The notes under the pieces: generated by a model | Databases searched by the model: none | Seen by the model: only the letters and a program-made list of their open reading frames with translations | What the model was told of the DNA's origin: nothing | Assembly: GCA_000004985.1 (NCBI GenBank) | Contig: GG738859.1 | Source: Naegleria gruberi | Taxonomy: Eukaryota | Length of the DNA stretch: 64,000 bases | Direction: 5' to 3' (one strand) | Made by a program: the position numbers and the translations under genes | Shown: piece after piece, positions 17,062 through 50,348 of the stretch | Numbering within the stretch: the stretch's first letter is position 1 | Layout: every line of letters begins with the position of its first letter

Positions 17062-19288
17062 TTAAAGAGCTTCTCGACGAGTCATGGTCAATAATTGTTG
17101 AGCATAATTCATACAGACCTTTTCACTCTCACTCATCCATTTGCCTTCTCTTCTCTCCTTCAATTTGGTCTGAATAATTTGAGCCCATTGTTGATCACAT
17201 TGAGCAAAGTGTTGCAACATTTTATCAATCACTCTTTGTTCAGTCACTCTAAAGAAGCTGGCAGCAATATTATCACACAAATTATTCTTATCCTTCTCTG
17301 GGAGAATCTTCCAGAAATCAGCAACTTGAGAATACAAATCCTCGAAAGAACCTTCATTTGGAACTTCATACAGACCACAATTTCCAGTAACCTTAAATGG
17401 TGGATCAATGTATTTGGCATTTGGTTTCAAACCTCCAAAGGCACTTCCAGTATAGTGAGGGAAGGAATCATTGATTGGAATGTACATGTTACCACCCAGG
17501 TAATTATTCATTGGTTCAATGCCATGTGGACGATTGACATAGAGTTGCTTAAAGTTTGGACCAATACGATGAATTTGAGTATAATCATAAATTAATAATC
17601 TTCCTTGCAATAGCTATTAACGAAAAACATGTATAAATATTTCAAACTCATGAACAAGTAAACTTACCTTATCAGGACTCAATCCAATTCCAGGAACAAC
17701 AGTAGCAGGAGAGAAGGCCACTTGTTCAACCTCTGTGAAATAATCCACAACATTTCTATTCACCTCCAACGTACCAACCTCAATCAATGGATAATCTGCA
17801 TGTTTCCAAACCTTTGTAGCATCAAATGTCCATGGATGTTTGTAACCTTCCTCCTCTGGCATGACCTGAATCATCATCTTCCAACGAGGGAAATTCTGTT
17901 TCTCAATTGACTGATACAAATCACGAGAAAGGAAATTTGGATCCTCACCTGCTACTAATTTTGCTTCATGTTGATTGAAACCGAAAGCTCCTTGTTGAGA
18001 AACTAAATGGAATTTGACCCAGAAACGTTCTTTGGCAGAGTTGACCAATGAGAAAGTGTGGCAACCATAAGCATTCATGGTTCTGTAGGAAAGAGGAGTT
18101 CCAGTTCGATCTGTGAAGAGCATGGCCATTTGATGGAGTCCTTCTGGGTGGTTGGCAACATAGTCCCAGGTTTGGGTAATGTTCCAGCAACCAGTTCTTG
18201 GATCACGTTTGAAAGCATGGACTTGGTCTGTGTGGTTGAGGAAGAATGTAGAGTTTAGTTGTTGGAAAGGTTTAGTTTGAAAAATTGTTAGTGGAAAGTG
18301 AAATAAACAACTTACCTGGACCTGCTTTGGCATCTCTGACAGCAAAGACAGGAGTGTTGATGCCCAATAAATCCCAGTTACCTTCCTTAGTATAGAATTT
18401 GATAGCGAATCCTCTTGGCTTGGAAATTGAAAAAATGATATTCGAAAGTCAATATTAAACTTAAAAACTTACATCTCTTGTAGTTTCTGGATCTCCAACT
18501 TCAGTAAAGATACCAGAAAATCTAGTAATAAATTGAGTTGACTTTCCAACTTGATTAAACAAATCAGCACAAGTATACTTGGAAATGTCATTTGTCACAG
18601 TAAATGTACCATAAGCACCAGTTCCCAAAGCATGTACATTTCTTGGAGGAATCTTTTCAGTATTGAAATGTTGAAGCTTTTCTAACAAATCCAAATCTTG
18701 AACACAAAGTGGACCTTGACTGCCAGATGTTAAAGAATCCTTGACATGACCAATTGGACAACCTGTTTGTCTTGTAATGATATTTTGTCTGTTAATTTCA
18801 TTTTGTTCAATCACACCTGGAATTTTACCAAATTGCTTACTGACTTCCTTGGAAGTGAATGAGTCTGAACCATATCCAAGCGGACATTTTAATTGTTGTG
18901 ATAATTGACTACTTTCAAGTCCTTGTTCTTGTTGAAGCTTTGGTTGAGTGGATTGAATTCCAGATGGTTGTAATCCAGAAGTTTGCTTTCCATATTGTTG
19001 TTGTTGAAGTTGTGGTTGTTGTTGCAGTTGTTGTGGTTGCTGTTGAAGTTGTGGTTGATTGGGTTGTTGTAAGCCAACCTGTTGTTGTTGTACTCCAGTT
19101 GGTGATTGTTGCATTCCAGTTGGAGATTGTTGTGATTGTTGTGATTGTTGTTGAGTGGAAGATAAATGAGAAGGTCTGAAGGCACCACTAGCATACGTTG
19201 GTGAAAAACCTTGTTGTTGCTGAGTGGGTGATTTCTGTTGTAAACCACCCTGTTGTTGTTGAGGTGATTGTGGTTGGTTTGATTGCAT
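17062..19288 (-). CDS. catalase (monofunctional, heme) with ~170-aa Gln-rich N-terminal extension; 4 exons (~19288-18473, ~18418-18315, ~18227-17668, ~17613-17062)
   Basis: ...[33 protein letters not shown]...ETTRD | [34 protein letters not shown] | [13 protein letters not shown]...SPDK | [21 protein letters not shown]..., collinear with catalases. Introns have GTAAGT donors. The N-terminus [15 protein letters not shown]... is encoded by a CAA/CAG-rich region. Confidence 0.85.
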
Positions 19289-22095: not shown

Positions 22096-23211
22096 TTATA
22101 TAATGTTCAGTGTTTCCAAATCCTTTTGAAGCAAGATATTCTTCACATCATTAAAGACCATCTTGATATTATTGGTGTTGGTGGCTGTTGTTACATGGCT
22201 ATAGAGTTGAGTATTCTTAGAGTTAAGTGATTTGAATTTGTTAATGATGAAATCTCGAGCTGATTCATATTGATGTCCTCCATGGTAATCACTAAAGGCC
22301 ACTCTCAGATCTGCATTCTTAATCTTTTCTCTGAACAGATCATCCTTGTTGAATAAGACAATAATTGGAATGGACTTGAAACAATCAAGCTCACAAATTT
22401 CTCTAAAAAGAAGTAAGCTTTCGTGTATTCTATTGGTAGTCTTATCTTCCTCTAAATTCATATCAAAATCATTAAGTGAGCAAATAAACACGACAGCTGT
22501 AGTATCCACAAAGGCATGAATCCACTTTCTTCTCTCCGTCCTTTGACCACCAACATCTGTGAATTTCCATCTGTATCCATCGGCATCAAATTCAACCTCA
22601 GTAATACCTAGGGTGGTTAATCTGGCTTTGATGATGTCTTCCTGGGTGGCTACATAATCTGGTTTGCATATTCTTTCACAATGATCCAGGAAACTGTTGA
22701 ATTACCAATGATGAAAATTAATTAATATATATTAATTAGAACAATCATTTCTTAAATAACATCTTCAAATAACTTACTATTCAATAGTGTCATTGATGGT
22801 AAATTCAGATCTTTTGGCCAAACACTGTTTCATGCCTGGATCTTTCCACAGTTTTGCAATCTTTCCAGCAATATCCTCTCCATAATTCTCGGTTTTTGTT
22901 GTTAGGATTTTTTGAATTTCAATAACAGGCTCCTTAGCAATAGACATTATCATTGAGGCTGTATCTTCATTCTCCTTCATCAACTCAATTCCTAGATCGT
23001 GCATTGCTTTGAGTATTGCCGAACATCCCTCAATCAAATTCTCTCTCACCACATTCGACATGGAAATCTTTTCCTTCTCTGTGAAGGGCTTATTATTAAT
23101 AATTCTCAATTGTTTAAAGAGTGTACTCTTTCCACTTTGAGCCGTACCTAGCAAAATGAGCTTTAACACTCTCTTTGGTTCATCTTCACCTCCACAGTCA
23201 AAGCAGCCCAT
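22096..23211 (-). CDS. heterotrimeric G protein alpha subunit (divergent), 2 exons (~23211-22778, ~22693-22096), ~344 aa
   Basis: MGCFDCGG... (N-terminal Gly/Cys lipidation signals), P-loop LLGTAQSGKST, switch/G3 DVGGQRTERRKW, NKDD (NKxD), TTATNT (TCAT-like). Intron has GTAAGT donor / CAG acceptor. The helical-domain region is divergent. Confidence 0.85.
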
Positions 23212-23670
23212 TTTTTTCTTAATAATTTAATCCTTAAGGATTTTACTTCTTAACGGTCAAAAGAAAAAGACTTGATGAATCGTTCCTTCTTTCCAATGCA
23301 TGAATATATAAAGCAGTGAATTAAAAATGGAACAAAAAATTCAAAATTCCTTAACATTGTTTTTCAATTCAATTGAAGTAATTGACCATGAATGGGTAGT
23401 TTTTTAGTTCTACGGAGTTTCAAACTCCAGCAATCTATCATAATTTTATTAGAAAAAGAACAAGCAATTCTCTTTATGATTTCTAATTTAAAAAAATGAG
23501 AAAACGTTGCTGAGCAACACATAATCATCAATTATTACATTCATTAAAACAATTATTGATCAGTAAAGAGAATTTAAAATCGGATACTATTTACTATTCA
23601 TTTATACATCATCAGCATCATTTAGAAAAATATATATCTTGTTGTTGTTATTACATAAGACAAGGTGAGA

Positions 23671-26600
23671 ATGAGATTACCAATTCCTCAAAATGTAATG
23701 CCGAATAATATGGCAAATAATCATCATCATCCTCCTCATCATCATCAAAATAATAATTACCCTAAACATCATTATCATGCCCATTCACGATTTAATGTTA
23801 ATACTCAACAAAAGCATTTACCACTTTTCAGAAGGGATTTTATTATAGTGGCTGAGTTTTGTGAACAGAAGGGTCCGACACCTCTTCTCGTCTTGCCAAA
23901 TGATCGAGCCTTGGAACGTTTCAATGTTCAAAAGTTTGTAACAAGAGTATTGGCTGGTGATCACACAAGGAAACACGACAAGTTGGGAGATAATTGTACT
24001 TGGATTTGTCCAGAGGATACTCAAGTCTACTTGACAGATTCTGCTCAAGGAGCTTTTGCCTATGTATGTTTCAAAATCAATTCATTATTGGAAATTAATT
24101 TTTACTATCTTTCTCTGTTAACTTTACTGTTTATTTATCTTGTTTGATTATCAATCATCTACACAACAACAGGTACATCACATTACACTTCATGATATCA
24201 ATGCAAGAGGATATGTTAGACCAATGGTCATGTGCTATGTGACCAATGATAAGGATAAAATAATGCACCATTTTGAATACTTGCTAAATACCTTTACACA
24301 AGTTTCACAAACACTCAAGTATGGAAACAATTGTAAATTCTTGAGCGATACTCAACATCAATTATATGGAATTCAGAAAATAGAAATGAAATTACATCCC
24401 AACAGTGGAAATGAACTGTCTTCACCAAGTATTAGTTCCTCACAGGAATTATCAAATGAAGAAAAAATTGAAAAACGTTGGAGAGAAATGTCAGAAGGTT
24501 TATTCTCTCCCAACAATGAGAATGCACTTTCAAAGGATACTTTCGAATTGGTAATGAAAGAATTGAAGGATTTGAGACGAAGATTCATGATACACATGAA
24601 CAAGTCCTCATCCATACTGAAACCAAAAAAGAAGACTCAAAAAAACAAAAAGAATTCCAAATCAGGTCCATTACAAAATCATACATATTTATTTGAAGAA
24701 TCGAGGTCAAGATCTGCGAGTAATAGCTCACAATCTACCTATGGAGCTGGGTCCACAGAGGAAGATAATTCCGATCAGGAAGTTTCTTCGCTAGGAGATC
24801 CTAGTAGTGGTGACTACAAAGTAGTTCAAATTGTACATAATAGCAGCAGTGGAAACAAATTGGAGGAAAATGATTTCAATGAAGAATTGGATGAAGAGTC
24901 TACCGAACTCATCCTCAATAAGATTGCTGATGAGGAAACTCTTGATACGGGGTTAATCGATCATATTTACATGTCGTTTAGTGCTGGAACTTCCTCAGTT
25001 TCATCTCTACATTTACATCCAACATTTGCAGTTAATCCTAAGGCAAATCTGAATGCTGTACCATATAAGAGTTCGCATTTTGTTGGAGGGTTTAGTGGTG
25101 CTAGTGTTGGTGCTCCAACAACAGCCTTCTTGTCCTCTCCTCATCAAGGTTCACATATTCAAAACACATCTCATATGGTGAATGTACTGAATGATATTAG
25201 TGATTCTCCATATTTGAACAGCATTTCCAGTCCAACATTCAATGCAATGAATTCTCTCAAGGTTCAAAATCCTGACTTTGTGGAATTGTATGAGACTGGT
25301 CTTTCTGTGTCCTCTCATAATTTGAAACAATTCATGCCAACCATTTTAAGATGTATCCACAGAAATACTAATTTTGAAACCACCCTGAGAACGTTAGCTC
25401 AAATTGCTGGACAGAAATTTTATGAAACATCGGTTGATTTGATGTTGAATATTATCGAACATTTCTATAGAGATTGTGATGTTATTGATATGGAAAATGC
25501 CGACTTGGATATTATCAATTCGAATGACCTTAACTCAATGCTCTTCATTGGAAGAAACTTTTTATTGGACTTTAATATTGAAAATGGTTATCATTACCCA
25601 CCAACGTTAAGCAATACCACATTTACAAAGAGCTTCCAATACCAATCAGCTCTGAATACTAGTGCTAGCATCAACTCTTCCAATGATGAAGTTTCATGGT
25701 TAGACAATGAAAATACATACAATGATGCTGAAGATGAGGCACTATCAACCATCTCTCATGATGAGCAAGACAATCCACTATTTGGAAGCTTCCCTTCCTC
25801 CTCTCCTGTGATGGCAAACAACTCTATCGAACAAAGCAACTCTCTTTCAACCAACAACAGTGACCGCTTTCAACTGTACAGAAATGGATTCAAGGGCACT
25901 GGTTCCTATGTCAATAGTCTATTCCAAGAATATGACAAGTATGATGAATTATTCCACGAATTGAAAAAGAGAAAACATAATTCCTCCAATTATACTGCAT
26001 CAAATAATAACCAAAATCAATCCCTTCTAACCTCTCTCCTGTTTGAATATAATTATGGTGAGCATAGTTACGGAAAAGGAATATTAAGGTTTTTCAGAGA
26101 ATTTTCATTCACAAAAGATATTGCCTACTCCATCATGATTGGTCGACCTATAGTAATATATGCAGATTCTAATCAAGAACAGTAAGTATTAGATCACCAC
26201 TCTTTTCAAAAATTAATTAATACTTTTATCCAATACAGAATTGTAAGAAGTATTGTCAACTCCCTAGCTTTATTCATACCAGGGTTTATCAATGGAACAT
26301 TTGAAAATACAAAGAATGACTACTTTTCTGTTTGTTATTGGAAGACCACTCCAATCAATGTAAGTTTTTTCAGCAACATTCAATATCAACTCTGAAAAGA
26401 TTCTTGATTTTTCCACAAACAAGATTATTGGGCTGAGTAAGAAAGTTCATTTCCCTACAACATTCGAATCTTGGGTGAGCATTTTGGATTTGGAAAATGA
26501 ACTCTATACTGGACCAAGCTATTATGGAAGATATTTGGATATTATCTTTGATGAGTCAAAGGAGTGGTTTACTGAGGATGCATTCTTGGCCTTTACGCAT

Positions 26601-27083
26601 GCCATCTTTTTAGAAATGGGCATGAAGGCATCACTCTACAATCAATTGTATTCCATTGCAAAAACTAGAGGGCACTTTTACAAGAAATCCCTCCACAAAA
26701 TCTCAACCACTGATCAAGCACCAAAAGATGGAGGAAGATCATCTCTATTTGGACCAATGTTCCCATCCCTACCACCACAAATGATTCACAAACATAATTC
26801 TCAATCCTCAAAGAAATCCAAACAAAAGAAAGCCTCTCAGCATTCACACAGCTACCCTATTGGTTCAGGTGCTCTGGAATCCATGAAAGATTGCAGTAAG
26901 ACCATCCAAAGACAATTAGGACTCAAATCTTGTGACTCTAAAATAGTTGATTATTTGGTAGATTTGATTCACATTCAGGAATCTATGGAATTAATGTTAA
27001 ATCCAGTCCTTCAAAACTCCATTCGTGTTGACACTGAAGTTTCTCTCAAGCATACCAATAAAAGAAGAAAACAAACCAAGTGA
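23671..27083 (+). CDS. folliculin (FLCN/Lst7)-like protein with long Ser/Asn-rich insertion; 4 exons (~23671-24063, ~24173-26181, ~26239-26359, ~26424-27083)
   Basis: N-terminus FIIVAEFCEQKGPTPLLVLP and ...AFAY | VHHITLHDINARGYVRPMVMCYVT match folliculin HFCELHGP / [24 protein letters not shown]. Donors are GTATGT/GTAAGT with AG acceptors. The C-terminal exons encode a DENN-like region. Confidence 0.55.
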
Positions 27084-28104
27084 GATGGACAATCCACTGT
27101 GGTATTCCTGATAATCGAAAAAGTGACTTATTTTATCAAATTTTCAATTGTTTCAATGATTTAAATTCAATCACAAGATAGATGACAATGAAATGAAACG
27201 GAATTGTTGTACAGTTAATTGAAGATGATCCACTTATCATGTGGTTGTAATAATTTACTTTCATTGTGTTCGCTTCACACTTTGGATCATTTATAGAATG
27301 AGAGTAATTAATTGGAATTTCATTTATTCGAAACCATGAATCCCAACTCTCACGATATTTTTATTCGAATTATCCATCAACAGACATTCAAACACTTTTC
27401 GTGATGAAAAAACTGTAAATGTACTTTTCAATGCTTGTTCCATCATCAATACATTTCAAGTTGGTTCTCAGTGAGAGATATTTCTCTTACCATTCATCTT
27501 ATTGAAAAACAAAGCTCTTTGGAAGTGCTCTAACCCTAAACTAAAAGAAAGATCATTTCGTTTACTTTCGTCTTCAGTTTCTGATTTTGACAACAATCTT
27601 GCATAAGATAATCCCACAAGTCAACCAAATCTCAATTATTGCAACTCATTCCAATGATGTGAATCACTTGCCGAGTATTTCACGCTGCAAGCCAAATAAA
27701 ATTCATGCCTTCTTTTTTAATGGTTGTTCGTCAAAATGATGTATGGAGACGTCAGTTGTCTATCAATAAAAAACAACGTAAAAAAAAACACTTTTCATCC
27801 TCTCGCACACTCACTTCATCCAAAACTTCATCAACGAAGCGAAAAGGACAAACTTGAAAACACAACACACTGATTAAAACATTGAAGTGTGTTCCATTGT
27901 TCATTAAAGGCGTTTTCCTCTCTAAAACATTGAAAAAAAAAAGCGGCGCGCTTTATTTACCGTAAATTTTAAAACATAGATAACACACAACGCAGGAAGT
28001 TGCTTTTGTTTTCTCTCTCACTCTCTAGGAATAAGAAGATAACACACATATAATATTTGTAGATTACAAATTACATACAACAATTGATTTAATATAGAAG
28101 AAAA

Positions 28105-29357
28105 ATGGGTATTTGCGCAACTAAACAACCAGGATCAGTCCAAGCACTGAATGAAATTGAAAAGGGAAGACAACAACAAGAAAGAGAAATTAAAGTCTTG
28201 CTTTTGGGAGCAGGTGAATCTGGTAAGAGTAAGTAATCATAACGATAATTGATGGTGGTTGACCATATACAACAATAACAATTTTAATAACTACAAACTA
28301 CTAATGATTGTTTGTTGAATGAACATGTTTAATAATGGTAATGATGATCATATGAAAACCTTTTATCTTTGTTTCTTCAACTTTAACTGATTATAAATTT
28401 ATATATTGATGATTTATAATAGGTACCATTTTCAAGCAAATGAAGATTATCCATCAAAATGGTTACTCTGAAGAAGAAAGAGAATCATACAAGGAAATTA
28501 TCTACGGTAACATATTAAAAGCCATGAAGAATCTGGTCCAAGCGACCTTCTCTTTTAACATTCCTATTGAACAGGAAGAAAACAGAGAACGTGCTGGTAA
28601 GATCAATGAACTCGAACAAGAAGCTCTGCTACACGTACATAAATATTGGACAGCTGAAATTGCTGACGATATTCAATGTTTGTGGTCAGATCCTGGTATT
28701 CAAAAAGTTTTTGAGAAACGTAACGAATTCCAATTGGACGATTCTGCTCCATACTATTTCACTCACCTTGATAGAATTAAACAAGCTGACTATAAGCCAA
28801 CTTTAGAAGACGTTGTCAGATCAAGAGTCAAGACAACTGGTATTGTAGAAATGAGCTTTAAATTAGATGATAGATCTGTAACCTTGATCGACGTTGGTGG
28901 CCAAAGAAACGAACGTAAAAAGTGGATTCACTGCTTTGAAGGTGTCACTGCTATTATCTTTGTTACATCACTGAGTGAGTATGATCAAAGATGTTATGAA
29001 GATGATTCCACCAACCGTATGCATGAATCCTTGCTATTGTTCGACGAAATTTGTAACTCTAGATGGTTCATGGATACATCCATTATCTTGTTCTTGAACA
29101 AGATGGATTTGTTCAAGGAAAAGATCAAGAGAACTGATCTCAGTCAATTCTTCCAAGAATATGAAGGTGGTAGAAACTTTGAAACTGCTGCCAGCTTTAT
29201 TCGTTCTAAATTCGAAGAAAAGAACAGAAATCCAAGACACAAGACCATCTATGCTCACTTTACATGTGCCACAGATACACAACAATTACAACAGGTCTTT
29301 GATGCCATCAAGGATATCATTCTTAACAAGACTTTAAGAGAACAAGGTCTTTTCTAA
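28105..29357 (+). CDS. G protein alpha subunit, Galpha-i/GPA1-class (352 aa); 2 exons (~28105-28228, ~28423-29357)
   Basis: MGICATKQ...KVLLLGAGESGK | STIFKQMKIIHQNGYSEEE...RVKTTGIVE...DVGGQRNERKKWIHCFEGVTAIIF...SIILFLNKMDLFKEKI...FTCATDTQQ...REQGLF. All G1-G5 boxes are canonical. The ~194-nt intron (GTAAGT...TATAATAG) falls in the P-loop codons. Confidence 0.9.
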
Positions 29358-29575
29358 ATGTCCTCCCACATTGTCATATTACTCTATTATCAACCCAAAA
29401 GAACTTTTCCAATTCTCTTTCCCCACAAACAATCACACATAAAACATCGAATGAAAATAAGTGTTCAATTTTGTAAATAACATAATACTTCAATTCCAAT
29501 TAAATAAAAACACATTAAAAACATTATGAAACAAACGAGTGAGCGAACAAACTCAAATAATGAAAGAACTAAAAA

Positions 29576-30661
29576 ATGGGTGCAAAACAAAGCAGGAATA
29601 GTGCAAAGAAAGTAGACGAAAGCTCATCCACAATACAAGAGAAGAAAATACAAGAAAGAACCGTTATGCTTTTCTCAAAATGCGGAGCAAGTACATTCAG
29701 CAGACAACTCACGAATGATAAATTACATGATAAAAATCAAATTGACTATTGTTGTCATGCTCTGTTATCACGAATGGAAAATTTTGATGAATTTTATTCT
29801 ATGGATGAAGAATTTGCAAGATTAAAGAATTTCAATCAATTTAATAGAATTCCAAGACCTAGGGAAATGCTTACAAGAATTTGGAAACATGACGAAATGA
29901 GACGAATCTTAATGGAAAAGTATCACAATGTTTGGAGATTTGAAAATTTATCTTTATTTATGGAACACTTATTGAATGGAAATTTTGATAATCAATTGGA
30001 AAATCCTTTTACATATGCTTCAACAAAAACAACAGGTGTTATAATTAGTGATTTCATTCATAGTGATCCAATTATTGGTCAACCCATTAAATACAATCTA
30101 GCAGAAATTGGAGGATCTAGAAGTGAATGGAAGAAAGCATTTATCTGTTTTGAAAATGTTTATTTTATATTCTTCTTTTGTGGACTTTCGGATTTTCATG
30201 ATAATCCTAACTATGATTTCGAACATGAATTTGTAAAATTCAATTATGTTTTTACCTGCAATAAGTTTCATGAGATTAATCCAAATTGTAGAATAATATT
30301 CTTATTTACAAAACCAGACATCTTACAATCAAAGCTTAAAAGGGGCAGTATTTATGACATTAAGAAGAATTATGAAATAAGGGAAGAATTGAAACAAATA
30401 TCAAATGAAAATGAAAGAAATGTCATCAATTCCATAGTATGTGATTTTTTTGCAGAGCACGAGACGGAGTATCACATTGTAAATTTACTAAATAAGGAGG
30501 AGGTTAATCAGGTGAGAGATTTGATTTTGAGTGGAGTGAAATCAAGGTTTCCATTCATTTCTAAATGTTTGAGAGATGAAGGAAAATGGAGGCAAGTTCT
30601 TTTCAGAATATTGAAAGATTCTAAACTTGGTGATATTTCAATAATTGCCAGAGGTGAATAA
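29576..30661 (+). CDS. G-alpha-like protein with degenerate nucleotide-binding motifs (predicted pseudo-GTPase), 361 aa, single exon
   Basis: MGAKQSR (myristoylation-type MGxxxS). Where the P-loop aligns it reads TVMLFSKCGASTFSRQL instead of LLLLGAGESGKSTIxKQM. Switch I STKTTGV is retained. G3 is EIGGSRSEWKK (catalytic Gln->Ser). NKxD becomes TKPD. Collinear with Galpha through WIHCFEGV->AFICFENV and ILFLNK->FLFTKP. Confidence 0.7.
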   Translation: MGAKQSRNSAKKVDESSSTIQEKKIQERTVMLFSKCGASTFSRQLTNDKLHDKNQIDYCCHALLSRMENFDEFYSMDEEFARLKNFNQFNRIPRPREMLTRIWKHDEMRRILMEKYHNVWRFENLSLFMEHLLNGNFDNQLENPFTYASTKTTGVIISDFIHSDPIIGQPIKYNLAEIGGSRSEWKKAFICFENVYFIFFFCGLSDFHDNPNYDFEHEFVKFNYVFTCNKFHEINPNCRIIFLFTKPDILQSKLKRGSIYDIKKNYEIREELKQISNENERNVINSIVCDFFAEHETEYHIVNLLNKEEVNQVRDLILSGVKSRFPFISKCLRDEGKWRQVLFRILKDSKLGDISIIARGE

Positions 30662-30719
30662 ATGTATTTAATTGTATTATTTTGAAATATATAGACAGTA
30701 CTAATAATATGAAGGAGAA

Positions 30720-30792
30720 GCCGACATAGCTCAGTTGGGAGAGCGTAAGACTGAAGATCTTAAGGTCCCTGGTTCGATCCCTGGTGTCGGCA
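30720..30792 (+). tRNA. tRNA-Phe (anticodon GAA), second copy
   Basis: 73-nt sequence identical to the copy at 8044..8116. Followed by AAATTTTAG (T-run). Confidence 0.9.
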
Positions 30793-31018
30793 AATTTTAG
30801 ATTTTAGTGTCTTCCCTTAACTGCACAATAGCCATTTTCATAACGATGCAATCTCAAAATAAATTCATGTTAAAAAAATGTTAGAAAAAAATTAATTCTT
30901 TCATTTTTGGTAGTTTACCATTTTGGTTAATTTATCTTCAATATTTGCTATTATCCTTTTTTGTTTTTTTTACTTTTTGGCTACCTTTTCCAAGTTATCT
31001 TTAAAAAAAACAAGCAAA

Positions 31019-33238
31019 ATGGTAGAATCACCAATTCTTCAAAAAGATCCTAATGAACAGCTGTTGCTACAAAGCCAAAAGCCACTTGGTCAACCACAAC
31101 AGCAACCTTACAATGCCATGCAAATGGAACTCACTCCACAACAGCAAACTCTGGAAAGTGTTGATAGACAAATGACTCAAGCATTTGGTCAACCATTGCC
31201 CCAACAGCAACCCATCCAATTTCAACAGCAACAACCATTAACCAGTAGTAGTGGTACCTTGCCAACTGCTAGCAATTTGGAAAGAAGAGAAGAACCTGAA
31301 AAACTTATTCAACCTTCTGAAGAATTAATGGAAGAGAAACAAGGTGGTAGTGCTCTTGGTGTTAGCAACATTTCTGGTTCTAGTAGTGGAGCTACTCAAC
31401 AAATGTCCATTTCTCCTTCGGTAGAAAAGTCAACCTTGCCACCCTTACCAACTAGTACCTTGCCTCAATCTGAACCATTTAGCCAGGAACAACATATGGT
31501 TAGTCATGATGTGAAAACACCTCACATTCGTGAGTACCCATGTATGAAAGCAGTTGTTACTTGTAACTATCAACAAGATGAACCAGAACACATGCTTGTT
31601 TATGTTGACAAGTATCCAAGACCTATTCGTATGAAATCTGATGAAATTCTTGTCAGAATGAAATGTGCTAGTGTCAATGATTTGGATTACAAAATCTGTC
31701 AAGGTAAAATTCCAGTTGAAATTCAAACTACTCCAATTCATTATCCGCTCATTGTTGGCGCAGATGGATGTGGTATAATTGAGAAATTAGGTGGAGATCC
31801 AACTAATCTCAGAGTAGGTGATTGTGTCTTTGGTTTCACCAATCAATTGGGTACATTTGGTGAGTTTGCTATCTTTAAGGAGAGAGAAGTCATGATGAAA
31901 CCTGACTGGTTGAGTATGGAAATGGCCAGCTGCATTCCATTCAGTGCTCTTGCTGCAATGAATTGTTTCCTTCTTGTTGATAAGAAGAGAAAGAAGAAAC
32001 ATGGTTTATTGGGTCCTTCCTTGTCAGTAATGAATAGAATTAGCAAATCACCTCGCTCAGTTGGTCAATCATCAAGCGTAGAAGAATCCTTTGAGAAAAA
32101 GGTCATTGAAAGCTCACAATCTCATCAGAAACTAACTCATGAAAATGAACCAATTAACCTTGAAGTTGTCAACCAACTGTTAAATGGTGACAAATCTGGT
32201 TCCATTCTCATCCAAGGAGGTGATACTTATATTGGCTCTTGGTGTATCTTACTAGCACGTTACTATTTTGGAGCTCAACGTATCTATACAACCATCAGTA
32301 CAATGGACAATGAAGAATATGTTAGAAAGATGGGTGCTGATGTCATTCTCAATTCACACGATGCCAAATATGAAGAAACCATTGAAAAAGATTTGTTGCA
32401 ATATTGGGAAACATTTTGTTGTGAATTGGATCCTCACAAGAATCAACAAACAATGCAACCTCCAGCAACCTCTACATTGAATACAAGTACTGGTAGTGAA
32501 ACTGTAACCCAACAAATGCAACCAACTTCAATGGTCAATCCACATCAAATGCAAACTACCCAACAAACCATGCCTAGCTCAAACATGCAACAAACTTCAT
32601 ACACAACCACTACAGAGACAGTTCAAGAACAAGTGGGTTTTCCTTCTTCTTCTCAACAAACTCATACAGTTCCAAGTCAAATGGAGTACAAGCCAAGTAT
32701 GATGCATCAAACAGAACCTTCCAATGTTTCCATGTCTCCTCAACAACCATCTCCAACTCATACTCCACTCACTCAATGGCCACATCCTGCCTTTAAATCA
32801 AAGAAGGAAATGGAGAAGTGTAAGCTCTTGATTTCAACACTCCAATTATCAATTGACACAGTTGGTGGTTATGATAATATGCAAAAGTCATTCAATTTGT
32901 TGAATGGAAGTACCAGTCATTACATTACTACCAATCCACCAATTGAGTTGGAACAAAAGAAGGTCAGTGGAAAGGATGTTTGGAAATTGGTAAGTATGGC
33001 AGCTGCAAACAGATTGAAGAGTTTCTTTGCTAATTATCCACATTTCCACCTCTTGCCTGCTGTTCAATGTGAGAGAGAATTGATGGTAGAGTTGATGAAA
33101 TGGTTTGAACAAATGGATAGAGATTGGATCCACAAGTTACTTCCATTCAAGACTTATCCAATGACTGAAGCTGCTCGTGCTATGGCAGATTGTAAAAAGA
33201 ATCCTTTCAAATTAGTGATTAACGTATCCAATGAATAA
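31019..33238 (+). CDS. medium-chain dehydrogenase/reductase (quinone oxidoreductase / zeta-crystallin-like) with Gln/Ser/Thr-rich N-terminal extension and insertions
   Basis: ADH_N/GroES-like segment ...ILVRMKCASVNDLDYKICQGKIP...YPLIVGADGCGIIEKLGGDPTNLRVGDCVFG... Rossmann segment ...ILIQGGDTYIGSWCILLARYYFGAQRIYTTIST...GADVILNSHDAKYEE. Long Q-rich insertions flank these. The first ATG in frame is MVESPILQK; the ORF track starts earlier at a non-ATG codon. Confidence 0.55.
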   Translation: MVESPILQKDPNEQLLLQSQKPLGQPQQQPYNAMQMELTPQQQTLESVDRQMTQAFGQPLPQQQPIQFQQQQPLTSSSGTLPTASNLERREEPEKLIQPSEELMEEKQGGSALGVSNISGSSSGATQQMSISPSVEKSTLPPLPTSTLPQSEPFSQEQHMVSHDVKTPHIREYPCMKAVVTCNYQQDEPEHMLVYVDKYPRPIRMKSDEILVRMKCASVNDLDYKICQGKIPVEIQTTPIHYPLIVGADGCGIIEKLGGDPTNLRVGDCVFGFTNQLGTFGEFAIFKEREVMMKPDWLSMEMASCIPFSALAAMNCFLLVDKKRKKKHGLLGPSLSVMNRISKSPRSVGQSSSVEESFEKKVIESSQSHQKLTHENEPINLEVVNQLLNGDKSGSILIQGGDTYIGSWCILLARYYFGAQRIYTTISTMDNEEYVRKMGADVILNSHDAKYEETIEKDLLQYWETFCCELDPHKNQQTMQPPATSTLNTSTGSETVTQQMQPTSMVNPHQMQTTQQTMPSSNMQQTSYTTTTETVQEQVGFPSSSQQTHTVPSQMEYKPSMMHQTEPSNVSMSPQQPSPTHTPLTQWPHPAFKSKKEMEKCKLLISTLQLSIDTVGGYDNMQKSFNLLNGSTSHYITTNPPIELEQKKVSGKDVWKLVSMAAANRLKSFFANYPHFHLLPAVQCERELMVELMKWFEQMDRDWIHKLLPFKTYPMTEAARAMADCKKNPFKLVINVSNE

Positions 33239-39952: not shown

Positions 39953-42900
39953 ATGAGTGAGCAAGAGGATATTCATCAACAAGTAGAAAAATTCTGCTTT
40001 CAAGCAACTGAGGCAATTAACTCTAATAATTTAAAGTCAGCCTTTGAATTTGTTAGTAAAGCTAAAAATTGTATGCCCTCAGACTCTTGGACAAATGAAT
40101 CGTTCTATGAACAAGTTTTAAACGTTAATCTTTTATATGCCGAGTGCGAGTACATCTCTGGCAATCATTCATCAGCAATAGAAATATATCAAAGTATTCT
40201 GCCCAACATTGTGGATAATGTAGACAGGCTGAAAGTCAGATTTTTACTGCTAAAATCATCATCAGCATCATCCAAGTATGAAATTATGTATGACGAATTT
40301 ATTGACTTGCTGGCGTCAAATCCCTCAACACATTGTCTAGTTGCTAATGGTGATGCCTTTACCGAAAAATGGATAGAGTCAACAACAATACAAATCAAGG
40401 AAAGCCTTGAATCATATTCAACACTTAGTGATGTATTACAAATGAAAGAATGTGAGGATGAAGAATCTGTAGCATTTGCTAGATGTTTATTGGAATGTAT
40501 TCAAGGAGTGTACATAGGAAAAAACTCCAACAAAATCTTTCTCTTTGTAACCCCACTTTTATTGTTCAAATCAATGCTAGAAGATGGATTGTACATGGAT
40601 TTAACTCATACCATCTTAACAGCTCTAGGGTAAGATTATTTTATTAGTATCAATTAACTAAATATTATAGATGGCAATTTTCTTATTTGGATGACCCAAA
40701 ACTAGGAAGCGACTTGTCAGAGGTTGGTAGTACCTTAGCAAAAGAGCATCACTCTACAGAAGCAAATTTTGCCCTCACAAAGTTTTTCGAATTGTGTATA
40801 ACGGCTTGTACAGGCGGTCTAGATGATGTTTTGAAGGTTTCGTATGATGCTTTCAAAATTGCAGAAACAGTTGAGGAAATTTCTTGGGGTGCTCAAAGTG
40901 GTTTTGTAAGTTTTAGTTCTTGCTTAAGAGTTTTCTAAATTATTACTATAGTGGCTTGGATTGACAAGTATTTTAAAAGGTTTTGATAAGGATTCGAATG
41001 AAAATCATTTGGAGGAAATCAAGACATTCAACAGAAAATGTAGTAGAGAATTCGAGAGTGATTTACTGGCTTGTATTGAACAAATTCCATTGTTTTTATA
41101 TGGAGCAACTGAGAATTTTTCCCCTAGTTTCATGCTTGACGGTTTTGAAGAGATAACCTTCTCAAGATTAATAGTCTTCTTTACAAAAGCTTTAATTCAT
41201 TTTTTCAAGGGTCAATATCAGGAAGCAGCTGAGCAAATCAATGAATCTGATGATGTGATAGATGACTGCTTTGGTACACCGTTTTACATGTTCTACAAGT
41301 GGTTTTCCTTCATTATTTTATCCTCCTTCTATGAAAAATATGATGATATAATGGCAACCAAAAACCAGAAAAAGTCCAAACTTTCAATAATGGAAGTAAT
41401 GCTTGGTCCCAATGCCAAAGCTCCAAAAACAATGAAAGAAAAGACATTGGAAAGAATTTTAGAGCACGAAAAGGATATTCTTGACTTGCATGCCAAGTAT
41501 CCTCATTTGATGGCAGCTGCTAGATCCATGTGTTCAGCAGAAGTCACTAAATTGCACAATGGAGATAAGGATGAAGTGATTGAGCTTTATGTCAATGCGT
41601 ATGAAGTTTCTGTGAATCAGAATATGCACCTCTATGCTGGTTTGATCCAAAATAGACTGTGTGACTTTTGTGTCTCAAATGAAATAGAGACAAAGTTCAT
41701 CAAATCATACGCAGAAAATGCAATTAAGACATGGAAGATGTGTGGTGCTCATGCAATGGTTTCCAAATTGAATGAGCAATATAAGGATGTACTGACGTTG
41801 GAGGTTGGAGATTCTCCAGAGTTTGAAAATATTGTTCCTATTGACTCGATACCACTGTCCATTGTTCTATCTAAGCAAACTCAAAGTTTCCTTTCATTCT
41901 CTAATTGTGATAGATTGGGAATATTTGTAAAAGAGCCAAACACTAAGGAATTCATTTTATTGTGCGAAAAAGAAAAGGGACACGAGGTAGAAATTTTCGA
42001 CGAGTTGGAACTCTCCCAAGCAGATTTCAAGTTTAGCATCAAGTCCCTTAAGATTTGTCTAAATTGCAAGAATCCTGTAATTATCTCTAATGCTGCTGGA
42101 AGTGACTATACAAGAAATCAAGTTTCTGATTGTGAGTATCTGCAGCAAAACAAAAATGTAAAAGAACAAATGATTATTCCACTGATTGGAGAATCAATAC
42201 TGAGAGGAGCCATAGTTTTTGAGTCATCTGTTGAAGAAACATTCAATAAGAACATGCTCAATAATACCAAGGCCCTTGTTGATACGCTTATTGATGGGTT
42301 GATAATACAGAATGAACAATTTAGAGCCCAAAGAAAGCTTGTTCCATTGGAATCTCTAAAACAATTAGGCAAGGATGCAGGAAGTGTACAGTTAGGAGAT
42401 CATGCCATCAAGAACGCTACCATTATGTGTTTGGAATTGAGAAACTTTACGGAAATAATAGAATCAGGACTAAGCTTTGTAAACTTGTTAATAGGGACAA
42501 TATCTCCAATAATAGAAAACCTAGGTGGATTTATAGAAAATTGTACAGGGCCAAAAATTGTGGCAGTTTTTACTAATTCTTCATCGAAGGCAGTAAGCGC
42601 CTCTTTGGATATTGTAAAAGCTTTGAGAGATTTGGGCAAAAATGTTAATTCAAAGACAACTCCTTCAATAGGTATTGGTATCCATTCAGGTAGTTGTTCT
42701 TTTGGAGTGGTAGGATCTTCTCAAATGTTTTCCATCATGTATTCCGAATCATTTTCAATGTGTTTGGAACTTACCAAACTTTCAAACAGCTTGGGAGCTA
42801 TTGTTGTTTTGACTCAAGATGTTCTCGATAGTCTAAATGCTCAAGAGTTGAAATTTAAATCAAGAAAGCTAGGGAAATTTATTTTTGAAAACAAAAAGAC

Positions 42901-43444
42901 CCATCCTTATTCACTCTTTGAAATTTCAGGACCTGATTGGATTGAATACAGCAATGATATTTCAAAGAATATTTCTCAACAAGTTGAGGAGTGTATTGAC
43001 TTTTTTTCAAAGAAGAAGTTTGACAAGGTTTTAACCATCACAGAGGGTTTAGAAAAGACAGTTAGGGACAAGTTTGATAATAATCCTTCACTCTTAGGAT
43101 CCCTCCCTCATCTCAAACTAATTCAAATGTACAGAGATCAAAGTAAGCGAAATATGAGTGTGACCTCTTTGCTGGGTGATTGGTGCGGAGAAATTAGCAT
43201 TGATCATTCCGGTAATCCACAACATTTATTCGAGCAATCTATAACATCTGAACAAGTACAGGTAACCCCAAAGGCAAATGAAGTGAATGAAGACATTGAA
43301 AAGAAGCTGAGAAGTTTACAAACTCAATTGGAACAACTAAAGTCAGAAAATGAAAACTTGAGATCTATTGCCAAGAATGAAGACTCAGGGATGGGATGTT
43401 TTTGTATGCCTAGCAGGAAGAAGATACATCCAACTAATAAATAA
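39953..43444 (+). CDS. TPR-like / GAF / class III nucleotidyl-cyclase-homology-domain protein with catalytically degenerate cyclase domain and C-terminal coiled coil; 3 exons (~39953-40635, ~40679-40906, ~40952-43444)
   Basis: Helical TPR-like N-terminus. GAF-like block ...FSNCDRLGIFVKEP...IPLIGESILRGAIVFES... Cyclase domain ATIMCLELRNFTEI...GPKIVAVF...IGIGIHSGSCSFGVVGS...FSIMYSESFSMCLEL aligns to FADIVGFT...KIKTIGDAYM...RIGIHTGPVVAGVIG...YDVWGDTVNxASRMES. The first metal Asp becomes Glu and the second Asp is lost. The transition-state Asn/Arg are absent. Ends with a coiled coil (LRSLQTQLEQLKSENENLRS). Donors GTAAGA/GTAAGT. Confidence 0.6.
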
Positions 43445-47115: not shown

Positions 47116-50100
47116 ATGAAGAAACTATTATCAACAATGGGAGCTCACGATTCTCAACAACAACAACAAAATCATGGAAATTCATCATCAACAACTCCAC
47201 GAGAACAATTACTTGGTATTCCATTGAGTGGAAAGAGAGCGACAACTAATTTGAGTGGCTATTCGAATCAATCATCCTCCTCCTCACCAAATACCACAAC
47301 AAGTGTCAGCAGTAGCAATGTATTTAGTACAAGTAGTTCGATACTGAGTAATTCGAATAGTGCTGTTTCGTCTCCTCCTCATCATTCTATGCATTTTACA
47401 AATCCAATAACTTATCCATCATCTTCATCATCAGCAACAACAACAGGAGGAGGAGGAGGTAGAAATAGAAGTAACAGCTCCTCTTCAACACATCATCAAT
47501 ATTTGGGAGCTACTTCTCCATCAACCATGTCAACTTCACCACACAATGCCATTTCTCCCAACACTTTACAAAGTCATATTCAAAATATGCAACAAACAGC
47601 AAAGAATGAACAATTACATGCAAAGCAAATTCAATTAGCCAAGATGTATAAATTCCAATTTGAGGAAATTTATGATAATCATGAAACTAGAGCCCTTTTT
47701 AAACAATTTCTTATCAAGAATCAGAACGGAGAAAATATCTATTTTGATAAGACTCTAGATTCCGAGTATAAACCTCTAAAATCGAATAGAAATAGATATT
47801 ATATGGCAAAGAGAATAGTAGAGACGTTTATAAAGGAGGGATCTCCGTATGAAGTGAATTTATCAGAAAAGGTGAAACATGCCTTGTTGAGAGAGTTTGC
47901 AAAGGCAAGTGAAGAAAATTGTCCTTTAGATTTATTTGATTCTGTTCAGTATCAAGTTTTAAGTTCAATGAGAATGGTATGTTTTTTTTATTGATCGATT
48001 TGAATTTGAATTTTTATTATTTGATTTTATAATTATTTGATGATTTGATGATTTGTAATAATTTATTGGAAACTACATAGGATGCCTATCCAAGATTTGT
48101 ACAAAGTGATGAATTTTTAAGTTTTATTGGAAGTAAATTATTAAATGCAAAGAATATGCATCATAAACTGAGGTTTTTAAAGGCCATTAATGCTGTTAGA
48201 AAGGTTTCACCTCTGGAATTATCATCTTCAAAGGCCAATCTCAGAAAGAGTTTGAATGTGAAACAAAAAAAGACTGAGGAAGATCAATTGAAGGAAGCTC
48301 TAATCATGGACCAAATAGAATTGGAAGATAATGCTCATGAAAATTTAATATTACACATTCCTGATGCTGATCCTACATTGACACCTCGATCCTATTATAC
48401 CTACACTTCTGCACCTGCCAATGGTCAAACAGCTCCATCACTCAATTCTCCAAATAATACCAACAATCATGCACATACTCATCAAACATCGGAAATTAGT
48501 GAACCTTCTACAATTAAGAGAAGTATGTCAAATTTGATGGGACATTTCTTTAAGAGTGGCGACAAACAATCAAGTAACGAAAAGAATTCAAACAATAGAA
48601 AGAGTACAGCTGCTACTCCAGTTCAACCCTATGTTCATACCACTAGAAATAGACATTCTAGATCAGGATCTGCTCTTGGTCTTTCTCTGGGTGAGTTGAC
48701 AACAAGTAGTAATAGCATTGGAGTTAAATTGCATGACAGCTTACCGAAAGCTATTCCTCCAATTAACAACTTTATTGTCACACCTGGTAGCGATGATGAA
48801 CATGACGATGAGGAAGATTATTCCAACAATACTGCCGACCATCAAGATAATGAGGATGACGATGACATTCCACTCTCTGAGCACGAAAGAGTTAAAAGAT
48901 TTGACACCATTCTCAGTAAGAGTAACATGTTTGGACAAAATCATAATCACCATCATCATCATCAAGATGAAATGGTTGAAGTTATTGATCCATGGCAAGA
49001 TGTGGAATCTTACATTTCTGGAGATTCTTCTGACGATGATGAAGATGAATTGGATCAAATGGATATTGGAGGAAATTTGGCAGCTATTGCTGGCACTCAT
49101 GTTAATTCCAGTCCTCTTACACACAATACAATTGTTCCAATTCTTGAAGGATTGTCGACTCATATAGAAGATCTACAACTTTCTACAAGAGAAGTTGAAG
49201 CCATCAAATCTGAGTACATGCACTATGTGGATAACAAGTCAGTATTGGATCTTGCAACCATTTTGAAACAAGTAGATGAGAAGGATAAGAAAACTAAATC
49301 AGGATGGTCCATGGTCAATTTGCAACCTAAAAAGAGAAGACTCGGCAGGAGAAGTAAATCAATTTCCTCATTGGACCTGATTGCACAACATTCAGTGAAG
49401 GCCTACTCTGCAAGATTTGACTCTATTGCCACCGATGATATTACATACATGTTGAGAAGATCTTGTCGATTGCCTTACAATGCCTTTTCAGTTTTACAAA
49501 TTTTGGCAGATGAAAGCACGGACGAAAGTATTGTCAATCCGTTATTGACAAGTCCAGCAGAATATATCGAATTTATTGTTAAGGAAACTGAACATGCCTA
49601 TGCCTCATTGATTACTTTAGAAGGTGCCAGATGGCCTTGGCCTCTTAAACAACGTCACTATGTCACCACTGGTACTGTTATTTCTGATATTATCAATGAC
49701 GAAAAGGATAATCCAGGAAGAAAACGTTATGTCATTATCAAGAGAAGTGTTGTAAATAATCCAAAATTGGAAATTACATTGAGTAAGAAGGATAATCCAA
49801 ACAGAGTATTTGGACTCAAATTAGAGGCCTACTTTATCGAATCTTTCAATACCAATGAATGTACATTGACCATGTTCAATGAATGGAAATTCACCAATGC
49901 CAACAAGTGGTCCTTCCCAACCAAACTCTTTAGAAAAACTCTGAGAACCTTCTCCACTGATTTCCATCAAAATTTAATTGACAGATTATCGAGCTCAGCT
50001 GGTCATCAACCAATTTCCTATCATGAATTCATCAGCCATACCAATACAGCTCACGATGTCTCTCCAAGAAACGATCACACTCTCCTCCACACACTCTTCC

Positions 50101-50348
50101 GTAATCAAGCTCTATCTCCATATAAGAAGAAGGAGGAAATTAAGGGTAAAGTTCAGAGTGTTTTCAATACATTATCCCTGATGAGATTATTCGAGTATGA
50201 TCTTCATGAAACTTGTCGAATCATTGAGGAAAGATATCACAATTCAAGTGCTACTACACCATCTGATGATAATAATCAACATCTTGTCAATCCTTCCATT
50301 CACATTGTTTCTGAAGAATCATCTCAGAAACAAACAAAAGTCTTGTAA
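47116..50348 (+). CDS. RGS (regulator of G-protein signalling) domain protein, ~1042 aa; 2 exons (~47116-47976, ~48081-50348)
   Basis: Ser/Asn-rich N-terminus. RGS domain FEEIYDNHETRALFKQFLIKNQNGENIYFDKTLDSEY...AKRIVETFIKEGSPYEVNLSEKVKHALLREF...QYQVLSSMRM | DAYPRFVQSDEFLSFI, split by a GTATGT...CATAG intron. Long C-terminal region without recognised domains (includes a His-run and acidic stretch). Confidence 0.7.

Follow-up and report, generated by a model that had tools for sequence, protein, structure and literature searches.

Three G-alpha genes of three lineages in an 8.6-kb segment of the Naegleria gruberi genome, one of them a putative pseudo-GTPase

A 64,000-nt stretch of the Naegleria gruberi genome (contig GG738859.1, 33-36% guanine plus cytosine (GC); the window, as this whole analysed stretch is called here) contains three genes for G-alpha subunits, denoted G1, G2 and G3 (Table 1). 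A previous reading of this DNA, made from its letters alone (the sequence-only reading), had placed all three inside 8.6 kb, and spliced gene models, Pfam G-alpha matches and the existing annotation confirm both the genes and their coordinates. Matches to the Pfam G-alpha family (PF00503, curated cutoff 48.8 bits) score 362.6 bits for G1, 459.6 for G2 and 62.3 for G3, all above the cutoff, with the match in G3 covering residues 58-315 only. All three are already in the annotation, as predicted proteins that carry a G-alpha domain: the models of G1 and G3 are exact matches to the N. gruberi entries EFC46415.1 and EFC46294.1, and that of G2 stands at 98% to the representative of its cluster, to which EFC46293.1 belongs. 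The idea that G1 is unannotated was considered and was rejected on its exact match; the 90% cluster of G1 is represented by a fragment of 121 amino acids (aa).

The genome of N. gruberi is reportedly ~41 Mb in size. The number of its G-alpha genes is reported as 44 (PMC8584482, citing Anantharaman 2011). With 44 genes in ~41 Mb, only ~0.01 further G-alpha genes would be expected in 8.6 kb, and the clustering of three is therefore far above chance. The three genes in this segment are of three different lineages, which makes it a tidy case of gene-family expansion of a known type.

Table 1. Positions in the window of the G-alpha genes, of the sequence features of G3 and of neighbouring genes (ORF, open reading frame).
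Feature	Position	Strand	Remarks
G1	22096..23211	minus	exons 23211..22778 and 22693..22096; GT..AG intron 22777..22694; 343 aa; NAEGRDRAFT_47943 / EFC46415.1
G2	28105..29357	plus	exons 28105..28228 and 28423..29357; intron 28229..28422; 352 aa; NAEGRDRAFT_38654 / EFC46293.1
G3	29576..30661	plus	single exon, no intron; 361 aa; NAEGRDRAFT_65833 / EFC46294.1
G2-G3 intergenic spacer	29358..29575		218 bp
G3, N-myristoylation-type MGxxxS signal, codons G2-A-K-Q-S6	29579..29593	plus	MG.K.S kept in most full-length subfamily members; lipidation itself predicted
G3, degenerate P-loop G37-A38-S39-T40, Lys to Ala	29684..29695	plus	identical lesion in paralog P0003
G3, switch I ASTKTTGV	30017..30040	plus	Arg finger to Ser, Thr retained
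G3, switch II EIGGSRSEWKKAFICFENV	30104..30160	plus	Gln to Ser, Trp to Ala; 12/19 positions identical to Gi (counted by hand)
G3, G4 box TKPD	30308..30319	plus	Asn to Thr; subfamily signature
G3, YHIVN in place of the TCAT G5 box	30470..30484	plus	subfamily signature
G3, C-terminal extension	30530..30658	plus	~43 residues past helix alpha-5; PFISKCL (30551..30571) and terminal LGDISII
SMCR8/folliculin-like gene between G1 and G2	23665..27083	plus	three ORF pieces, presumably spliced
ADH_N-domain gene flanking the G3 position	31019..33238	plus	syntenic in N. lovaniensis and N. fowleri
RGS-domain ORF	47116..47994	plus	46.1 bits; possibly spliced to 48156..50348; context, no functional link shown
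Cyclase-domain ORF, partial match	40961..43444	plus	22.2 bits (cutoff 21.9), over profile positions 68-169 of 183

G2, which evolves slowly, is the Gi/o-like core G-alpha of the vahlkampfiid amoebae. It shares 52% identity with human Gi-alpha-1 (GNAI1), with all five G boxes identical, and all of the motifs quoted for it in the sequence-only reading are present, including the G boxes and the C-terminal GLF which it shares with canonical Gi/o proteins. The motifs of a competent switch (GxxxxGK(S/T), switch-I Arg and Thr, DxxGQ, NKxD and TCAT) are found in all five of its G boxes. Orthologs occur in Willaertia magna (88% identity) and in N. lovaniensis and N. fowleri (~96% over exon 2), and a phase-1 intron within the P-loop Ser codon is common to the orthologs of all three. 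Between N. gruberi and N. lovaniensis the rate of non-synonymous substitution (dN) in G2 is 0.031 and that of synonymous substitution (dS) is ~2.2, so that synonymous sites are saturated at the split of these species. About 5 kb upstream of the G2 ortholog in Willaertia magna lies a gene for a G-alpha-domain protein of 1064 aa (locus L002, 1647..4841, minus strand).

G1 is a G-alpha of the Naegleria lineage, divergent but not decayed. Again all of the quoted motifs are present: the protein has the N-terminus MGCFDCGG and carries GTAQSGKST, ARLTTLGI, DVGGQR, NKDD and TTATNT, and it thus keeps the P-loop Lys and Ser, the switch-I Arg and Thr, the catalytic Gln and the NKDD box, all five G boxes being intact save for the conservative TTATNT. 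Its N. lovaniensis ortholog is 73% identical, equal in length and interrupted by the same intron. In a neighbour-joining tree of 36 G-alphas (347 columns, Kimura distances, 300 bootstrap replicates) G1 forms a separate branch with 100% support. The three genes had been described as a series of progressive motif decay, a description that does not hold, as they are three separate lineages and G1 retains every catalytic residue checked.

G3 lacks most of what defines a canonical Gi/o switch. It had been said to have lost the P-loop Lys and Ser, the catalytic Gln and the Asn of NKxD; the Lys has indeed been replaced by Ala, the Gln is gone (DVGGQR to EIGGSR) and so is the Asn (NKxD to TKPD), but Ser39 and Thr40 of the P-loop (LFSKCGAST) are kept. 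Further losses that had not been listed are those of the switch-I Arg finger (RVKTTGI to STKTTGV), the first P-loop Gly (to Leu), the switch-II Trp (KKWIH to KKAFI) and the TCAT box (TCATDT to VNLLNK). The five-box set found in G2 is thus absent, the corresponding segments of G3 reading LFSKCGAST, ASTKTTGV, EIGGSR, TKPD and IVNLLNK. The switch-II Trp is reported to be universally conserved in the 13 G-alphas of N. fowleri (PMC9283941). In addition, the position of the receptor-docking tail of a canonical Gi/o protein is taken in G3 by an extra C-terminal module of ~43 residues, in which a Pfam search found no domain match. We considered whether the terminal L(T/S)D(I/V) of this extension could form the opening strand of a BTB domain whose remainder lies in a downstream exon, and rejected the idea because family members that reach this motif all end within ~15 residues and because only ~360 bp separate the G3 stop codon from the conserved start of the next gene.

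Relatives of G3 were sought with a word-indexed search, followed by a HMMER profile search of 1.8 billion representatives. The word-indexed search matched G3 itself, a paralog on a different N. gruberi scaffold (P0003; EFC42511.1 / NAEGRDRAFT_50404) with 70% identity and an 89%-identical metagenome sequence, and nothing else; a scan of Joint Genome Institute (JGI) metagenome contigs found no relatives of G3. The profile search retrieved a graded set of proteins which, unlike canonical G-alphas, align with G3 through the C-terminus. These include EFC45911, EFC39174, EFC44299 and EFC39698 of N. gruberi, KAG2385849, KAG2386051 and KAG2389242 of N. lovaniensis, and KAL9653390 of Willaertia magna. 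The set comprises at least 20 clusters at 50% identity, and PF00503 is matched by 20 of 20 members. Its signature was read from 19 cluster representatives, with a family alignment and a motif table. In every member the G4 box NKxD has become (T/S/V)KxD, mostly TKPD, and the G5 box TCAT has become (Y/F)H(I/V)xN; a conserved IR.EL...R.V.NSI block is also found, and members reaching the C-terminus have an extension of ~45 residues with a PFISPCL-type motif ((F/Y)IS(P)C(L/I)) and, at its end, L(T/S)D(I/V)xI. Most full-length members begin with the N-myristoylation-type MG.K.S. With its TKPD, YHIVN, PFISKCL and LGDISII, G3 belongs to this Naegleria/Willaertia-specific G-alpha-like subfamily, as it is defined here.

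The members of the subfamily differ in how much of the switch they have kept. The P-loop Lys is retained by most of them (e.g. P0212, P0215, P0217, P0219 and P0244). Among the members tabulated, only P0212 retains the catalytic Gln and only P0244, from Willaertia, the aligned switch-I Arg. In G3 and P0003 the P-loop Lys has additionally been lost; both read GAST and EIGGSR, and they are the most degenerate full-length members in the table. P0244 is an intermediate, with 37% identity (205 bits) to G2 and a CYEDDSTNR..ESLLLFDEI block in common with it, alongside the subfamily-type TKVD, YHVVN and FISHSL. Like G3, three of the four other subfamily genes sampled have no intron. G-alpha neighbours were looked for at four other subfamily loci and none was found, which led us to reject the idea that pseudo-G-alphas recurrently pair with canonical ones.

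Several details of the other subfamily loci were recorded along the way. The annotated 301-aa model of C9374_002998 in N. lovaniensis (L004, 9779..10906) looks truncated at its N-terminus, P0212 aligning from residue 1 at position 9779, upstream of the annotated start at 10001. Genes for small GTPases of the Arf/Ras/Roc type lie 0.5-7 kb upstream of two subfamily loci in N. lovaniensis (L007, 1342..4233; L008, 8592..9551), which may be coincidence, and in Willaertia magna a Phage_lysozyme-domain gene lies immediately downstream of P0244 (L009, 11251..11670).

The head-to-tail arrangement of G2 and G3, given as 219 bp apart, had led the sequence-only reading to propose a tandem duplication followed by pseudoenzyme evolution. 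The two genes are adjacent and on the same strand as claimed; the spacer measures 218 bp. An origin of G3 as an in-place duplicate of G2 that then lost its catalytic motifs could further be argued from P0244, which ties the subfamily to a G2-like ancestor at depth, and from N. lovaniensis, where the gene at the position of G3 looks like a duplicate of G2 (see below). However, none of the 300 bootstrap replicates placed G3 as sister to the G2 orthologs, and the tandem model is contradicted because this is the outcome that the sequence-only reading had itself named as refuting. Support for the split that groups G3 and P0003 with the other subfamily members is 100%, or 90% with P0244 included, and this split owes nothing to the C-terminal extension, since alignment columns with >30% gaps had been removed. 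BLASTP scores from G3 are likewise higher to subfamily members on other scaffolds or in other species (64-98 bits) than to G2 (43.5) or G1 (36.6). The intron that G2 has conserved across genera is missing from G3, so that the two genes differ in structure, and the extension typical of the subfamily is found in G3 and not in G2. The closest relative of G3, P0003, lies on another scaffold, the N. lovaniensis gene at the equivalent position has no BLASTP match to G3, and N. fowleri is without a G-alpha at this position. A tandem copy of G2 decaying in place is therefore not supported by the tree, BLASTP, the intron, the C-terminal extension or synteny, and we regard it as extremely unlikely.

The order of genes around G2 has been kept between species, and the gene directly downstream of it has not. 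In N. lovaniensis the G2 ortholog (C9374_005975) is followed by a G-alpha of 424 aa (C9374_005974), an ADH_N-domain gene, a SMCR8/folliculin-like gene on the opposite strand and the G1 ortholog (C9374_005971). The SMCR8-like and ADH_N genes of N. gruberi are clear orthologs of these: tblastn aligns the former at 55-80% identity with the 1157-aa N. lovaniensis gene, which has a precomputed match to PF27109 (SMCR8_C), although the N. gruberi ORF pieces alone gave no Pfam match. The N. fowleri locus has G2, then ADH and, at its edge, the beginning of SMCR8, in matching order. The block of G2, G3 and ADH_N (28105..33238) is inverted relative to SMCR8 and G1 in N. gruberi when compared with N. lovaniensis (L006) and N. 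fowleri. The order G1, SMCR8-like, G2 is thus older than the split between N. gruberi and N. lovaniensis, allowing for a single inversion. The SMCR8/folliculin-like protein is of the DENN type, and its linkage to G1 is kept in N. lovaniensis.

The pair of G2 and G3, on the other hand, is not conserved as orthologs in N. lovaniensis, N. fowleri or Willaertia. At the position of G3, N. lovaniensis has a different degenerate G-alpha, C9374_005974 (L003, 908..2265; L006, 11532..12889), with a P-loop GPSGAGIST in which Lys has become Ile, a scrambled switch II, NKMD kept and no FISPCL tail. Its best match is G2 (131 bits), and it has an intron at the exact position and phase of that of G2, the P-loop Ser codon; this gene is plausibly a true tandem duplicate of G2 turned pseudoenzyme. 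In N. fowleri, three opposite-strand genes with no Pfam match lie between the G2 ortholog and ADH_N (L005, 11571..18052), tblastn detected no G-alpha remnant at this position, and only ~180 nt upstream of ADH_N resemble N. lovaniensis; a further locus, L010, is N. fowleri-like and not an independent data point. In Willaertia, the gene after the G2 ortholog runs on the opposite strand and lacks a Pfam match, and a tblastn search of the G2 locus with G3 found nothing. The position directly downstream of G2 therefore turns over between species, even between the sister species N. lovaniensis and N. fowleri.

The age of the G3/P0003 divergence can be gauged from synonymous sites. The dS of G3 to a P0003-like sequence is ~0.36, compared with 0.355 between N. 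lovaniensis and N. fowleri and ~2.2 between N. gruberi and N. lovaniensis. Because the first value is far below that of the species split, one of the two copies, or their last exchange, is specific to the N. gruberi lineage. A metagenome contig (L001; ENA ERZ929261, 1226 bp) that aligns with positions 29440..30700 of the window contains a mosaic gene: the 5' flank and the first 381 nt are P0003-like, and the rest, including the 3' flank, corresponds to the G3 locus, with five single-nucleotide differences in the coding sequence and one in the flank. At the junction the two sequences appear to share only ~40 nt, as estimated from the P0003 protein. An assembly chimera is unlikely because this stretch is so short in relation to the k=127 of the assembly, and the contig points to non-allelic gene conversion in a further strain resembling N. 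gruberi.

These data raise the possibility that G3 is a recent arrival, a copy of a NAEGRDRAFT_50404-like gene having replaced, in the N. gruberi lineage, an older G2-derived duplicate such as N. lovaniensis still has, through ectopic recombination or gene conversion among the G-alpha paralogs, which would be compatible with G3 being a pseudo-GTPase of the subfamily. Non-orthologous degenerate G-alphas at one and the same position, between G2 and ADH_N, in two species are what such a replacement would leave behind, as is the youth of the G3/P0003 divergence, and the mosaic contig, flanking DNA included, at least suggests that non-allelic exchange is ongoing. Yet either copy could be the parent, the mosaic could still be an assembly artefact, independent gains and losses fit equally well, and the window has no remnant of a G2-like gene at this position; we consider a replacement possible, if somewhat doubtful. 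A bolder reading, to be entertained with similar caution, is that the position after the core Gi-like gene is a recombination hotspot which repeatedly captures degenerate G-alphas, and that the bearers of TKPD, YHIVN and FISPCL are an undescribed vahlkampfiid clade of myristoylated adaptors in which the switch was lost stepwise, with G3 as the end point. If so, the mosaic contig would be a live example of non-allelic exchange among paralogs.

Loss of five catalytic or nucleotide-binding determinants, together with an evolution far faster than that of G2, might also indicate that G3 is an unexpressed pseudogene whose ORF is still open by chance, and a literature search found no expression data for it. 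Against this, the ORF runs uninterrupted for 361 codons through DNA of 34% GC, for which the random expectation is ~1e-12, and in a neutral simulation no more than 0.02% of copies stayed open at 0.12 or more substitutions per site. The paralog P0003 is open too, and indels between it and G3 are all in frame. Between G3 and the P0003-like allele, which makes up 381 nt of the gene on the mosaic contig, dN/dS comes to 0.40 and synonymous changes are in significant excess (p ~0.003-0.008), an estimate resting on 59 substitutions, one third of the gene and a mosaic metagenome contig. Conservation between G3 and P0003 is patchy, with long identical blocks in the TKPD region, at YHIVN and PFISKCL and in a portion of the helical domain; both the motifs common to the subfamily and the MG.K.S start of the protein have been kept. 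A pseudogene is on these grounds very unlikely, and G3 appears to be no dead gene. The intact ORF, dN/dS and in-frame indels favour retention as a gene, and the earlier suggestion of a pseudoenzyme derived from a G-alpha is borne out.

The predicted fold points the same way. An AlphaFold2 model of G3 built on the family alignment (predicted local distance difference test, pLDDT, 77.6; predicted template modelling score, pTM, 0.76) shows a Ras-like core and a helical domain. The PFISKCL segment is confidently placed (pLDDT ~87), and confidence falls below 50 at the C-terminal end. In a Foldseek search of the PDB the top 50 matches were all G-alpha chains (probability 1.0, ~340 columns, template modelling (TM) score 0.5-0.6), with Gs, Gi, Gq, Golf and Gt among the top chains. 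G3 is thus predicted to keep the two-domain fold of G-alphas, in which an all-helical domain is inserted into a Ras-like GTPase domain. It would share this fold with canonical Gi/o proteins, as it shares with them a score above the Pfam threshold.

Taking these lines together, we consider it likely that the segment holds three lineages and that G3 is an expressed pseudo-GTPase of the subfamily, most likely a GTPase-dead, membrane-anchored adaptor. In such a scheme G3 would be expressed, N-myristoylated and associated with the membrane, would be unable to hydrolyse guanosine triphosphate (GTP) and would probably bind nucleotide poorly or not at all. Because GTP would not be hydrolysed and nucleotide hardly bound, it could serve as a nucleotide-independent adaptor or decoy within the large G-protein network of Naegleria. 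Its comparatively preserved switch-I/II face would engage partners of canonical G-alphas, such as G-beta-gamma, RGS proteins or effectors, and the new C-terminal module would take the place of receptor coupling.

A number of points weigh against this interpretation. The tree is distance-based, covers part of the N. gruberi repertoire and contains very long branches, and long-branch attraction could inflate the support for the subfamily; the C-terminal and motif signatures, which are independent of the tree, also point to the subfamily grouping. The narrow base of the dN/dS estimate has been noted above, and a literature search found no paper mentioning these gene identifiers. Binding of G-beta-gamma by G3 is uncertain because the N-terminal G-beta-gamma-binding helix is not predicted (residues 1-25, pLDDT ~42) and because the switch-II Trp is lost. 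Finally, TKxD is a functional variant of the G4 box in dynamins, and the loss of the Asn alone is therefore no proof of inactivity.

This last point also bears on the main alternative for the activity of G3, namely that it still binds guanine nucleotide and is dead in hydrolysis only, locked 'on' or 'off' in the manner of GTP-locked pseudo-GTPases. Still in place are Ser and Thr in the P-loop, Thr in switch I, GG in switch II and Lys and Asp in the G4 box; TKxD would be usable as a G4 box, and retention of the P-loop Lys by most members means that the subfamily as a whole may bind nucleotide. In G3, however, that Lys has become Ala and the first P-loop Gly has become Leu, both changes being common to P0003, and the G5 box is lost as well. 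Loss of the P-loop Lys in Ras-like GTPases cuts nucleotide affinity by orders of magnitude. Nucleotide binding by G3 itself is for these reasons unlikely, and an adaptor largely independent of nucleotide is the reading that we prefer.

A protein of this description has several known counterparts. Lineage-specific diversification of the G-alphas of N. gruberi, including members with deviant catalytic motifs, is described in PMC8584482, which summarises Anantharaman 2011, and in de Mendoza et al. 2014 (PMC3971589), and G3 is one of these already reported members. In plants, the extra-large G proteins (XLGs), which are among the atypical G-alphas, have degenerate G motifs, are retained under selection and are thought to be largely independent of the nucleotide cycle (PMC8584482). 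G3 is analogous to them in principle, being likewise G-alpha-derived with degenerate G motifs, but the XLGs have a long N-terminal extension where G3 has a short C-terminal one, and the two have independent origins and no specific sequence relationship. With pseudo-GTPases in general G3 shares a retained fold, lost G-motif residues and evidence of purifying selection; that class is defined biochemically, and G3 is placed in it from its sequence and predicted fold. By this measure G3 would be a G-alpha-derived pseudo-GTPase, which is a known kind of protein.

Further from the three genes, an RGS protein and a degenerate cyclase-domain protein had been noted, and the region had been called enriched for components of heterotrimeric G-protein signalling. 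The RGS domain is confirmed, whereas the cyclase match is marginal (Table 1), and the enrichment is not compelling. There are 229 RGS genes in N. gruberi (PMC3971589), and the cyclase families of Naegleria are very large, with 80 cyclases in N. fowleri (PMC9283941). Because ~0.36 RGS genes are expected per 64 kb, one being expected ~30% of the time, and because the cyclase families are of such size, the presence of both is at the level of chance, and apart from the G-alpha genes themselves nothing in the window speaks for a functional cluster. Elsewhere in the window, an ORF at 50798..51904 (plus strand) has a match to a terpene-synthase C-terminal domain (PF19086, 35.1 bits), which looks unusual for an amoeba, and a catalase gene lies at 17617..19288 (minus strand) in two ORFs that an intron presumably separates, with Pfam Catalase scores of 239.9 and 117.7 bits.

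The striking claim, that of a tandem duplicate caught decaying beside its parent, does not hold. The locus is nevertheless informative about Naegleria, whose heterotrimeric G-protein toolkit is among the largest known. N. fowleri is a lethal pathogen in which G-protein pathways are considered as drug targets (PMC9283941). Sorting conserved switches such as G2 from lineage-specific switches such as G1 and from putative GTPase-dead derivatives such as G3 helps in the choice of targets and in the interpretation of knockouts. The subfamily itself forms a natural series from near-intact to fully degenerate G-alphas, and is useful for studying how a switch may become a scaffold.

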